A DNA stretch of 32,000 nucleotides. It comes from Pirellula staleyi DSM 6068 (GTDB lineage Bacteria; Planctomycetota; Planctomycetia; Pirellulales; Pirellulaceae). The position numbers and the translations under genes were made by a program. Within the stretch, counting starts at the first letter, position 1. Each line of letters starts with the position of its first letter. The stretch is taken from assembly GCA_000025185.1 (NCBI GenBank), contig CP001848.1:5250001-5282000 (forward strand). Direction: 5' to 3'. Shown in pieces: positions 24,561-26,883 of this stretch. The notes below the pieces were generated by a model. The model did not search any database. It was not told the DNA's origin and saw only the letters and a list, made by a program, of their open reading frames with translations.

Positions 24561-24585
24561 TGACTCTTTATGATTAGCTCTTCCT

Positions 24586-24607
24586 CCCAGGCCGCTCGCA
24601 ACCAGGG
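24586..24607. repeat. Degenerate copy of the REP palindrome
   Basis: cccaggccgctcgcaaccaggg versus the consensus cccaggttgcgagcaacctggg: 5 mismatches, and the palindrome is partly lost. Confidence 0.4.
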
Positions 24608-24695
24608 ATCGCAAGAGTCAACGACCAGCAACAATCTCTGATGCAAGCAACATCTTTTTTTTCAAAAAACGAAATTTCGTACATGGCCCTTTCAC

Positions 24696-24717
24696 CCCAG
24701 GTTGCGAGCAACCTGGG
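24696..24717. repeat. REP-like perfect palindrome (10-bp arms, 2-nt loop)
   Basis: cccaggttgc-ga-gcaacctggg lies 46 nt downstream of the RAYT stop. It is identical to the copy at 25370-25391. Confidence 0.8.
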
Positions 24718-24762
24718 TTCACAAGAGGCAATTTCGTACTTGGCTCTGACCTCTGGAAACTT

Positions 24763-25269
24763 TTACTCTACCCATCGCACGGGGACTCCTACTGAACGCC
24801 CTTCGATGTAGTACCTAGCTGAACTCCATCTCCAATCGATGGCGCGATCAACCAATCCTGCTCGGACCGGATTCAAGTGGATGTAGTCGAGTTTGATACG
24901 CACGACGTCGCTCAACTCGACAGGCAACACAAATGACCGAGGGCGCCAAAACTTTTTTCCCATGCCAAATTTGGAAAAGTAATGAGGAGCATGCTCTGCA
25001 TACCAGCGGCGAATTGCATAGCTGCTCATGCGCTTCCAGCCATGTAAAAATCGGTCGATGAGTTCCACTTGAGGAACCCACAGCAGAGCATGCACATGAT
25101 CCGGCATTATCACAAAGCCGACGCAACTCGCATTCAATGCTTCGAGCTGATGATTGAGCGTTCCAAGCAGTAATCTTTTGGGCTGATCGAGATCCAATAA
25201 CCTACGGTGCGAATCGACACCAAAAGTCACGAAATGGATGAACTTGCTTTCGCTCATGGCAAAATGCAA
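24763..25269 (-). CDS. REP-associated tyrosine transposase (RAYT; IS200/IS605 TnpA-like Y1 HUH enzyme)
   Basis: HUH motif in VIMPDHVHALLW. The catalytic Tyr context is LDYIHLNPVRAGLV. Length is 168 aa. GC content appears lower than in flanking genes (by eye). The gene is flanked by identical palindromes. Confidence 0.85.
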   Translation of the reverse strand: MHFAMSESKFIHFVTFGVDSHRRLLDLDQPKRLLLGTLNHQLEALNASCVGFVIMPDHVHALLWVPQVELIDRFLHGWKRMSSYAIRRWYAEHAPHYFSKFGMGKKFWRPRSFVLPVELSDVVRIKLDYIHLNPVRAGLVDRAIDWRWSSARYYIEGRSVGVPVRWVE

Positions 25270-25369
25270 TAGCTACAAAAGACTACTTTTTTATGACTTT
25301 ATAGTCATCCTAAAACAACTATCGAGGGGAATCACCACCCGAACGAAATGAATTCGGGCCTCTCCTGAA

Positions 25370-25391
25370 CCCAGGTTGCGAGCAACCTGGG
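25370..25391. repeat. REP-like perfect palindrome, second copy
   Basis: cccaggttgcgagcaacctggg lies about 100 nt upstream of the RAYT start. Its 5' flank aacgaaat...ggcctct resembles the flank of the first copy (24668-24695). Confidence 0.8.
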
Positions 25392-25495
25392 ATGAAGCAA
25401 GTGAGAAGTAGGAAGCGGTTTGGTTAGAAGCCGAATCCCTGAAGACTGACTGTCGGGCCGGCGCGCGTCCGCAAAGCCATCATTTTCCACTTGCC

Positions 25496-25524
25496 CTTGA
25501 TTCTTCGGCGGCTGCGAGCATAAT
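25496..25524 (+). promoter_or_regulatory. Putative sigma-70-type promoter for the aro leader (TTGATT-N17-CATAAT)
   Basis: TTGATT at 25496-25501, a 17-nt spacer, then CATAAT at 25519-25524. The predicted transcription start would fall within a few nt of the leader ATG at 25532, so the leader ORF may have little or no 5' UTR. Confidence 0.3.
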
Positions 25525-25531
25525 CAGGGAC

Positions 25532-25606
25532 ATGAACACGCGGTTTTTTAGCTATTGGCACTTTTACTTTACCCTCGGTGTCCGAGGGGCCGTGGAAGGT
25601 ATGTAG
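25532..25606 (+). CDS. Candidate aromatic amino acid leader peptide (24 aa): MNTRFFSYWHFYFTLGVRGAVEGM
   Basis: Hand-translated; it is below the ORF-track size cutoff. Seven of the nine codons at 25544-25570 encode Phe (4), Tyr (2) or Trp (1). It sits between a promoter-like element and a strong terminator, upstream of DAHP synthase. Confidence 0.55.
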   Translation: MNTRFFSYWHFYFTLGVRGAVEGM

Positions 25607-25639
25607 CCAAAAAGCCGCAAAAACCTGATCCAACGCAAG

Positions 25640-25673
25640 CCCCGAGGACCCGCAAGGTCGCTCGGGGTTTTTT
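25640..25673 (+). terminator. Intrinsic terminator (attenuator) upstream of DAHP synthase
   Basis: ccccgag-gacc-cgcaa-ggtc-g-ctcgggg gives 11 GC-rich bp with one bulged G and a 5-nt loop, followed by TTTTTT (25668-25673). It lies 193 nt upstream of the aroF start. Confidence 0.7.
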
Positions 25674-25866
25674 GTTGGCTCCGGCGTTTTCTAGCGGTTA
25701 AGGAAGGGGATGAGCAGGCGAGCACTTAGCGCATCGCTTGATCGATCCTCCTCCCGAATAGCTCCTTAGGTGCCGGCGAGATTCGCGCTACAGGACCTCC
25801 GTTATGAACGCGCTTGTTACCTTGCCAACCAATCATCTCAATCCAACGTTTCGGGAGCTATTCTCA

Positions 25867-26883
25867 ATGATCGTCGTCATGGATAAAGGGGCCACGCCCG
25901 ACCAAATCAAGCACATGGCTGAGCGGGTCGAATCGCTGGGGCTCAAGAGCCACGTCATTCAAGGGACCGAGCGCACGGTGATCGCCGCCATCGGCGAAAA
26001 ACGGGCCGAAATGAAAGAATCGCTCGCTAGTGGGCCTGGTGTTGAAGACGTCGTACCAATTCTAGCGCCCTACAAAGTCGCTAGCCGCGAAGTGAAAAAA
26101 GAGCCGACCCAAGTGGTGGTTCGCGACCTGAAGGTCGGGGCCGGCATGGTAGGTGTGATGGCGGGGCCTTGCAGCGTTGAAAGTGAAGAGCAGATCATCA
26201 CCACCGCTCGCGCAGTGAAAGCAGCTGGCGCGACGGCGCTACGTGGCGGCGCGTTCAAGCCACGCACAAGTCCCTACAGTTTCCAAGGGATGAAAGAAGC
26301 GGGGCTCAAACTGCTCGCCGCTGCCCGCGAAGAAACGGGCCTCGCGATCGTCACCGAAGTGATGAGCACCGAAGATGTCGAACTCGTCGCCAAGTACACC
26401 GACGTGCTGCAAGTCGGCGCTCGGAACATGCAAAACTACCGCCTACTCGAAGCTGTTGGCCAAACGCGCACCCCCGTGCTGCTGAAACGCGGCCCTAGTG
26501 CCACGATGGAAGAATTTCTTCTCGCCGCCGAGTACATCCTCAACGAAGGCAACCCGAACGTGATGCTCTGCGAGCGTGGCATTCGGACCTTCGAAGCCCA
26601 TACGCGTTTCACCCTGCCACTTGCTTCGGTTCCCTACCTGCATCACAAAACCCACTTGCCGGTGGTGATCGACCCCAGCCACGGCACCGGCCACACCTAC
26701 CTTGTGCCCGACATGGCAGTGGCTTCCGTAGCAGCAGGCTGCGACGGCCTGATCCTCGAAGTCCATCCCGATCCCGAACGGGCGATGAGCGACGGCTATC
26801 AGTCGCTGAACATCCCCCAGTTCGAAGAGACCATGAAGCGCTGCCGCGCCGTTGCCACTGCTGTCGGCAAAACGTTGTCGTAA
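25867..26883 (+). CDS. aroF: 3-deoxy-7-phosphoheptulonate (DAHP) synthase, type I-beta, with an N-terminal ferredoxin-like regulatory domain
   Basis: GGGAG lies 9 nt upstream of the ATG at 25867. The product begins [43 protein letters not shown], which resembles the Thermotoga-type regulated DAHPS N-terminus. Catalytic motifs are [18 protein letters not shown] and VIDPSHGTG. Length is 338 aa. The track start at 25804 is an alternative. Confidence 0.9.

Follow-up and report, generated by a model that had tools for sequence, protein, structure and literature searches.

The window analyzed here is a 32,000-nucleotide stretch of the Pirellula staleyi DSM 6068 genome (contig CP001848.1, positions 5,250,001 to 5,282,000 of the forward strand), and all coordinates below are positions within it. 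Its aroF gene, which encodes a DAHP synthase, is preceded by a short open reading frame (ORF) with a run of codons for phenylalanine (F), tyrosine (Y), and tryptophan (W), by four mutually complementary segments, and by a run of six T residues. A sequence-only reading of the window had interpreted this arrangement as a candidate ribosome-mediated attenuator, and we followed up that interpretation computationally. The mini-ORF at 25532-25606, the four segments, and T6 were all found at the positions first reported when checked against the sequence and the ORF list. The codon run at 25544-25570 reads TTT TTT AGC TAT TGG CAC TTT TAC TTT. Segment 1 is ccctcgg (25572-25578), the core of segment 2 is ccgaggggcc (25582-25591), segment 3 is ccccgaggacc (25640-25650), and segment 4 is ggtcgctcgggg (25656-25667), followed by T6 at 25668-25673. 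The folding energy of region 25525-25680 was -73.2 kcal/mol compared to -48.8 +/- 4.1 kcal/mol in dinucleotide shuffles (z = -5.9; 0 of 200 shuffles equal), and the fold consisted of a long hairpin at 25540-25618 followed by the terminator hairpin. A 69-amino-acid minus-strand ORF (25424-25633), called most likely spurious from the outset, had no Pfam match and no conserved counterpart among relatives; its best tblastn match among them had an E value of 0.12 and lay over the antisense of the conserved leader. The features are listed in Table 1.

Table 1. Features of the putative attenuator and of aroF, in window coordinates.
Feature	Position (strand)	Basis or detail
-35-like hexamer TTGATT	25497..25502 (+)	Promoter scan; cTTGnnn equally spaced from the leader ATG in 19/47 loci and in the four closest relatives
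-10-like hexamer CATAAT	25519..25524 (+)	Ends 7 nt before the leader ATG; start predicted at or next to A25532
Leader-peptide ORF MNTRFFSYWHFYFTLGVRGAVEGM	25532..25606 (+)	24 codons plus stop UAG 25604-25606; direct reading, ORF list
Regulatory codon run FF.YW.FYF	25544..25570 (+)	7/9 aromatic: 4 F, 2 Y, 1 W
P1, extended 1:2 hairpin (putative anti-antiterminator)	25540..25618 (+)	z = -4.1 for 25532-25639
Segment 2, predicted antiterminator 5' strand UCCGAGGGGCCGUGGAAGGU	25581..25600 (+)	Kinetic-window folds; in relatives, the homologous counterpart GGUCGCGGGGC pairs with the 5' arm of the terminator
Predicted antiterminator 3' strand	25623..25648 (+)	Overlaps terminator 5' arm (25639-25648); kinetic-window folds
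Intrinsic terminator hairpin	25640..25667 (+)	5' arm 25640-25650, loop 25651-25655, 3' arm 25656-25667, G25660 bulged
U-tract T6	25668..25673 (+)	Predicted 3' end of ~140-nt terminated leader RNA
Rest of 5' untranslated region	25674..25866 (+)	No additional promoter-like site predicted
aroF, DAHP synthase with N-terminal ferredoxin-like regulatory domain	25867..26883 (+)	Pfam

We scanned the 700 nt upstream of 80 loci encoding DAHP synthase relatives, taken from species-representative genomes, for short ORFs. An F/Y/W-rich mini-ORF was present in 46 of the 80 loci (examples are MRNYFYTYFWFFFSLRGRRAGGGI, MSSYRAAYYFWFYFSPPGRGAGDGL, MKAAKFYFWYYFTPSPDPGDAAH, and MSSVRPSCVAVSTGDSYRFWFYYFTGAMRRAG), and the carriers belonged to Pirellulales, Thermoguttaceae, Gemmataceae, Isosphaeraceae, and Phycisphaerae, with one genome each of Chloroflexales, Ardenticatenaceae, and Calditrichota and one unclassified bacterium. 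Two more Chloroflexota loci had the leader further upstream, before an aroH-(pheA)-DAHP synthase operon, for a total of at least 48 of 80; the aromatic-rich mini-ORF proposed from the window is conserved upstream of aroF in relatives. The four closest relatives (L084-L087; DAHP synthases 87-88% identical) and one Gemmataceae-like metagenome-assembled genome (MAG) also carried the leader. Roseimaritima sediminicola JC651 (L004) had a leader of the window type (MSTRFWYDWRFTFPSGSEGPVG...), and the Gemmataceae MAGs with a leader were L045, L048, L054, and L081. A second protein search for a copy in cultured Gemmata obscuriglobus gave only metagenomic relatives (MAG-type assemblies, with the leader present). 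Stretches with at least 6 aromatic residues in 9 occurred at 34 loci on the coding strand within the 340 nt that precede DAHP synthase, a density of 1.30 per kb. The rest of these loci, approximately 1.03 Mb when both strands are counted, contained 15 (0.015 per kb, a difference of approximately 89-fold), and several of those 15 were leaders of the same kind further upstream.

The analyses of the family that follow cover 47 leaders, namely the 46 fetched loci and the window. Their runs contained 149 F, 82 Y, and 62 W, with all three residues in 38 of the 47. Codon usage was TTT 117, TGG 62, TAT 47, TAC 35, and TTC 32, with neither TTA nor TTG nor an in-frame stop among 300 T-starting codons; these counts are partly circular because the runs were chosen for aromatic content and taken from ORFs. 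When the window was compared to relatives with an 88% identical DAHP synthase, the N-terminal halves of the peptides were unrelated, and the aromatic positions had shifted while their number was kept. The conserved C-terminal motif ...PPGRGAGGG is encoded by segment 2 and the P1 3' strand, so its conservation is that of an RNA rather than of a peptide.

Some loci departed from the common layout. In the Pirellulales MAG L020 (2792-3004), the leader has one extra G after segment 2 compared to L026 (GGGGCCGGGAGA versus GGGGCCGGAGA), the usual stop is lost, and an ORF of 70 codons crosses the terminator to the DAHP synthase start; this may be a mistake in the assembly, or else a naturally occurring variant in which translation would continue across the terminator. 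Four Chloroflexota loci (L068:2305-2500, L071:1580-1750, L073:200-410, and L075:2352-2520) have an F/Y-rich leader and terminator before an operon that begins with an AroH-type chorismate mutase (M..RG[IV]RGAT...) and ends with DAHP synthase, with a prephenate dehydratase in L071. Three Phycisphaerae loci (L059:2804-2959, L062:2829-2987, and L064:2750-2896) have an ORF of approximately 50 amino acids between the attenuator terminator and the DAHP synthase gene, and these ORFs share weak mutual similarity (...L..A...I.LA..I...WR).

The promoter-like pair first described, TTGATT with CATAAT, was confirmed, although TTGATT begins at 25497 and the spacer is 16 nt, not 17 nt. In 19 of the 47 loci, the window included, cTTGnnn is followed after a 16-17 nt spacer by nAnAAT ending 6-7 nt 5' of the leader ATG, whereas no alternative spacing in the 0-30 nt range was shared by more than 2 loci. 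The four closest relatives read CATAAT-accgac-ATG, a spacing of 6 nt. A -10 box 6-7 nt from the ATG leaves no space for a Shine-Dalgarno sequence. Transcription is predicted to start at the ATG itself, and this promoter geometry predicts that the leader-peptide mRNA is leaderless. A promoter scan of 25200-25950 returned the site at 25497 as the sole promoter-like site; the match by itself was no rarer than in shuffles (1 found versus 0.7 expected).

Segments 3 and 4 had been described as an 11-bp terminator, and RNAfold gave 11 pairs with one G bulged and a hairpin energy of -19.5 to -22.4 kcal/mol. This hairpin was missing from the output of a simple terminator scan, probably on account of the bulge in its stem. 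A hairpin with a T-run lay 3' of the leader in 47 of 47 cases, was G+C-rich, and usually began 21-54 nt past the stop codon (positions from an automated scan with three manual fixes). On A1, a MAFFT alignment of 26 leaders, the terminator stem showed 92% pairing, and compensatory changes affected 8 of its 11 pairs; 0 of 500 shuffles matched this covariation, and pairing collapsed once the 3' partner was slid by 1-3 columns. RNAalifold, unaided, predicted the same stem. No upstream gene on the + strand needs this terminator, as the neighbor at 24763-25269 is on the minus strand.

Two further observations concern the terminators of relatives. In many of them the stem is immediately preceded by an AAA that can pair with the first U-tract residues (A1 columns 128-130 / 164-166), and RNAalifold has these pairs as A-U in 12-19 of 26 sequences; the window equivalent (about 25637-25639 with 25668-25670) is weak, reading CAAG. 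In L081 (1051-1500), a partial second copy of the terminator 3' arm and T-run (CAGGTCTCAGGGCTTTTTG) lies between the terminator and the DAHP synthase start and may be the remnant of a duplicated terminator.

The alternative to the terminator was examined by kinetic-window folding, in which a ribosome mask covered the aromatic codons and the transcript ended before the terminator 3' arm, with shuffles as controls. In the window, addition of the terminator 5' arm gained -14.8 kcal/mol versus -3.9 to -4.5 kcal/mol for shuffles in two runs (z about -4). Across the 47 leaders, the median antiterminator gain was -10.2 kcal/mol compared to -4.5 kcal/mol for shuffles, with a mean z of -2.0 and 30 of 47 loci under -1.64. 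The helix that forms pairs segment 2 with segment 3: GGGGC 25586-90 pairs with GCCCC 25639-43 and UCC 25581-83 with GGA 25646-48, and further pairs are CGU/ACG, GGA/UCC, and AGGU/ACCU. On A1 this helix was 77.8% paired versus 23-51% when slid by 1-3 columns, and it had compensatory changes at five pairs in 17 cells, with 0 of 500 shuffles matching the observed value. Both the terminator stem and the antiterminator helix thus covary on A1, covarying stems in related genomes being what the sequence-only reading had proposed to look for. Combinations of a leader's own segment 2 and terminator arm outpaired swapped ones (0 of 5000 permutations as good; Wilcoxon p = 7e-4), and the 2:3 pairing tracked lineage-specific changes in the arm, as in GUCGCGGGGC/GCCCYGAGAC, in AUUGCGGGGC/GCCCUGGCAAU of L043, and in GCGGGCU/AGCCCGC of Phycisphaerae. 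What competes with the terminator, and is conserved, is predicted to be a 2:3 antiterminator of the classical type.

The sequence-only reading had instead proposed that a stalled ribosome frees segment 2 (25582-25591) to pair with segment 4 (25656-25667) and so sequester the terminator 3' arm, and had called for the energies of the two states to be compared. In that comparison a 2:4 duplex was feasible at -18.8 kcal/mol (3:4, -24.9; 2:3, -21.5), but the full transcript folded into 3:4 in every stalled state, and 2:4 was never the minimum-energy structure in the constrained folds. Segment 3 is made before segment 4 and adjoins it, so the 3:4 hairpin forms in all constrained full-length folds. 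The pairing that forms once segment 3 is transcribed, and that is conserved and covarying in relatives, is 2:3, and a 2:4 antiterminator, which would be kinetically disfavored and superfluous, is very unlikely.

The 1:2 hairpin first described corresponds to the apex of P1, where 25572-25578 pairs with 25582-25588. In the P1 lower stem, the aromatic codons pair with 25589-25618, which includes Gly-rich codons and the stop codon. The apex is CCCUCGG/CCGAGGG in the window versus CCCUGAG/CUCAGGG in the closest relatives (L084-L087), which amounts to two compensatory pair changes. Segment 2 begins 11-15 nt past the last aromatic codon (interquartile range, with 11 nt being the minimum distance permitted by the ribosome mask), where the front of a stalled ribosome would lie. 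The start of the stop codon is 3' of segment 2 by a median distance of 14 nt (the window has 15 nt), which is within the ribosome footprint, so a terminating ribosome would cover segment 2. Between the last aromatic codon and the stop, 11 codons was the most frequent spacing (15/47 loci), and 29/47 loci had 10-13 codons. In some Phycisphaerae, the Calditrichota locus, and L079, the stop lies 5' of segment 2, usually just 2-3 codons past the run.

Taken together, these data indicate that the element is very likely a classical ribosome-mediated attenuator that sets aroF expression by the supply of charged Phe-, Tyr-, and Trp-tRNA. Transcription would begin at A25532 of the leader ATG or at an adjacent nucleotide, from TTGATT-16-CATAAT, to give a leaderless mRNA, and the ribosome would translate the 24-codon leader. 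With adequate supply, the ribosome would pass over segment 2 (25581-25600) to reach the UAG at 25604-25606 and then occupy segment 2, leaving segment 3 free, so that the hairpin at 25640-25667 with U6 could form and polymerase would terminate to release an RNA of ~140 nt. If the leader were not translated, P1 (25540-25618) would hold segment 2 and the outcome would again be termination. Scarcity of any of the three charged tRNAs would stall the ribosome within the run at 25544-25570. If this happened at the final F-Y-F codons (25562-25570), the ribosome would cover segment 1 (25572-25578) and open P1, and the freed segment 2 would pair with 25623-25648, including the terminator 5' arm, to block the terminator and allow read-through into aroF. 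Earlier stalls would open the P1 lower stem only, freeing 25589-25618, where 2:3 could nucleate.

The core of the original interpretation, an F/Y/W leader peptide with a terminator controlling the DAHP synthase gene, is strongly supported by the comparative evidence; anatomy, conservation, covariation of the terminator and antiterminator, and trpL-like energetics are computed results. Several points weigh against it. The start site, stalling, termination, and ribosome-polymerase coupling are predictions, and every step of the mechanism is deduced from sequence. About a third of the related loci, such as Roseiconus L022 and Kuenenia L037, had no recognizable leader. Support for P1 across the family was moderate, with a mean z of -1.39 and 19 of 47 loci under -1.64 in per-sequence folds, and its lower-stem partners vary between lineages. 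A fixed 5-bp 1:2 register on A1 was no better than controls (66% paired; 82 of 500 shuffles equal), and this approach was replaced by the per-sequence folds. The covariation statistics are inflated by the common ancestry of the sequences, which the slid-register and swap controls partly address. The U-tract lies 193 nt from aroF, and a second promoter there is possible, though none was predicted. Finally, the terminator was more stable at equilibrium in every state, including that with a stalled ribosome.

The last point was assessed with a positive control, the E. coli trpL leader, whose sequence was confirmed to match the Trp leader region annotated in E. coli genomes at 100% identity and which was run through the same scripts. 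When a ribosome occupied the regulatory codons, the terminator state had an equilibrium advantage of 4.4 kcal/mol in trpL versus 6.9 kcal/mol in the window. In the kinetic window, the antiterminator gain was -10.5 kcal/mol for trpL (z = -5.4) versus -14.8 kcal/mol for the window (z = -4.1). The energetics of the window match those of a proven attenuator. Since the terminator always wins at equilibrium, the switch would have to be kinetic, as in trpL; and since the proven trpL attenuator also favors its terminator, the competitiveness of the antiterminator at equilibrium, which the sequence-only reading had named as a refuting test, does not discriminate. Equilibrium folding was dropped as a test of the switch because the trpL control gave the same outcome, and kinetic-window folds with shuffles were used instead.

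Other readings of the same anatomy were considered. The region could be a structured RNA that is not translated, for example a riboswitch or a leader that binds a protein or a tRNA, with the terminator as expression platform and the ORF incidental to a U-rich structure. The strong structure of the region (z = -5.9), the participation of the window's aromatic codons in P1 pairing, and the fact that translation of the leader is predicted only are all compatible with this. However, conservation is by amino-acid class, as F, Y, and W positions move and the synonymous codons TTT/TTC and TAT/TAC are both used; TTA, TTG, and in-frame stops are absent from the runs, with the circularity described above; the -10 box is followed at constant spacing by an in-frame ATG; and the stop codon has stayed in place where the sequence around it has diverged. 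Nor was there a conserved core resembling a ligand pocket outside the alternative helices, or an Rfam family at threshold, and we regard an untranslated RNA of this kind as quite improbable. That the ORF stands by chance beside an unrelated terminator might be argued from its shortness and from a promoter-like match no rarer than in shuffles, but the 89-fold enrichment, the recurrence of the unit in at least 48 of 80 loci from several phyla, the covarying helices, and the lack of a + strand upstream gene to need a terminator leave next to no probability for coincidence, which the comparative data already refute.

The complete promoter-ORF-terminator unit could also be an independent small gene for an aromatic-rich micropeptide or a ~140-nt trans-acting small RNA, unconnected with aroF expression. 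Sinorhizobium offers a precedent in the trans-acting attenuator RNA rnTrpL and the peptide peTrpL (PMC6614838, PMC7298713). Against this, the unit directly precedes DAHP synthase or an aro operon, in the same orientation, in many phyla (in a search that began from DAHP synthase loci, with copies elsewhere in the genomes not sought), the peptide is conserved in composition only, pairing of the RNA with the terminator arm determines the C-terminal half of the peptide, and no second promoter is predicted before aroF. An independent gene is therefore highly unlikely; a trans role of the leader RNA or peptide could exist in addition to attenuation, not instead of it.

The aroF product matched DAHP_synth_1 (PF00793, 5.4e-76) and DAHP_snth_FXD (PF18152, 4.6e-23) in Pfam, and we take it to belong to the type I-beta subclass of DAHP synthases. 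Its closest homologues were from Pirellulaceae (87-88% identity). The start originally assigned at 25867 agrees with most homologues, which are 337-338 amino acids long, the length this ATG gives, and the ATG has GGGAG 8 nt upstream. An in-frame ATG at 25804 would give 359 amino acids, the form recorded for the identical database protein P0001, and many database entries of 352-359 amino acids may carry over-extended N-termini. Upstream of the attenuator is an IS200-like Y1 transposase gene (24763-25269, minus strand; PF01797 at 2.9e-07). It is flanked by a 22-nt palindrome, CCCAGGTTGCGAGCAACCTGGG, at 24696-24717 and 25370-25391, with a 77% variant at 24586-24607. The transposase and palindromes (24580-25397) look like a REP-associated transposase (RAYT) with REP sequences, inserted approximately 100 nt upstream of the putative attenuator promoter.

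No Rfam family reached its gathering score in the window or in 20 related loci, and only chance-level matches were found at E up to 10. Phe_leader (RF01859) scored 19.8 bits over 25525-25676 against a gathering threshold of 55 (E = 0.83), and membership was rejected, as this sub-threshold score reflects similar architecture. Leader-peptide attenuation had been described in the sequence-only reading as not established in Planctomycetota, and we found no literature report of it, within a coverage of the literature that is incomplete and could miss an earlier description. The attenuator survey of Naville and Gautheret (2010) mentions neither Planctomycetes nor aro genes, and in a 2016 leader-gene paper Planctomycetes appear only in a distance statistic. 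The type of mechanism is textbook; the family is widespread, absent from Rfam 15, and broad, in phyla with almost no regulatory RNA biology. We lean toward the view that it is an ancient, uncatalogued family of leaderless F/Y/W-leader attenuators of ferredoxin-like-domain DAHP synthases and aro operons, extending from Planctomycetota into Chloroflexota and Calditrichota. Annotators overlook the element or overlay it with a spurious antisense ORF.

The reading has consequences for regulation and for cell biology. A single leader would combine the signals from Phe, Tyr, and Trp at the step that commits to aromatic synthesis. In the DAHP synthase of Thermotoga maritima, the ferredoxin-like domain mediates feedback inhibition by Tyr and Phe, and from the presence of this domain we infer a second level of control in addition to attenuation. 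Ribosome-dependent attenuation needs translation close behind transcription, so its conservation argues for co-transcriptional translation in Planctomycetota, a phylum in which the matter is under debate, with Gemmataceae MAGs included. If the family is what we propose, ribosomes would track RNA polymerase closely enough to control termination throughout the phylum, Gemmataceae included. Gemmata obscuriglobus belongs to Gemmataceae, and its transcription and translation have been claimed to be spatially separated (Gottshall et al. 2014, as cited in PMC6212462); the compartmentalized cell plan underlying this view is disputed (PMC5394234, PMC6554331). The element would offer a simple genetic read-out for the question of transcription-translation coupling.

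The element shares with E. coli trpL and pheL a short leader ORF with a codon run for products of the pathway and, as predicted, three mutually exclusive helices (1:2, 2:3, and 3:4) that end in an intrinsic terminator. It also resembles trpL in its energetics: the terminator is the stabler state at equilibrium, and the antiterminator forms in the kinetic window alone. In contrast, it has no detectable homology to either, its run mixes Phe, Tyr, and Trp, its mRNA is predicted to be leaderless, and it would control the common first enzyme, DAHP synthase, rather than pheA or the trp operon. The trpL stop codon lies just 5' of segment 2, an arrangement seen in the variants from Phycisphaerae, Calditrichota, and L079, whereas in most Planctomycetia the stop lies 3' and the ribosome would pass over segment 2.

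Leaderless leader peptides followed by hairpins and a U-rich stretch are known from Streptomyces lividans trpL1, leuL, and ilvL (PMC8079986), and leaderless poly-Cys ORFs have been documented in mycobacteria (bioRxiv 10.1101/834739). As in these Actinobacteria, the leader peptide of the window is predicted to be translated from an mRNA that begins at its start codon; the start was mapped by RNA-seq in Actinobacteria, whereas it is deduced here from -10/ATG spacing, and the phylum, amino-acid specificity, and target gene all differ. A leaderless start, if confirmed, would take leaderless leader peptides beyond Actinobacteria.

Judged by analogy, the closest proven counterpart of the window element is aroR-aroF of Corynebacterium glutamicum, in which the aroR leader (Phe-Tyr-Phe) attenuates the aroF operon and stalling raises transcription, as related in PMC11802643, citing Neshat 2014. 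According to the same article, aroR has three regulatory codons and no Trp, and Tyr availability is reportedly without effect. Compared to this actinobacterial leader, by description only, the planctomycete-type family has 6-8 aromatic codons in 9, usually with all three residues, and precedes a DAHP synthase with a ferredoxin-like domain. Like aroR, it places aromatic leader codons upstream of an aroF gene or operon, and the run in the window also ends in F-Y-F.

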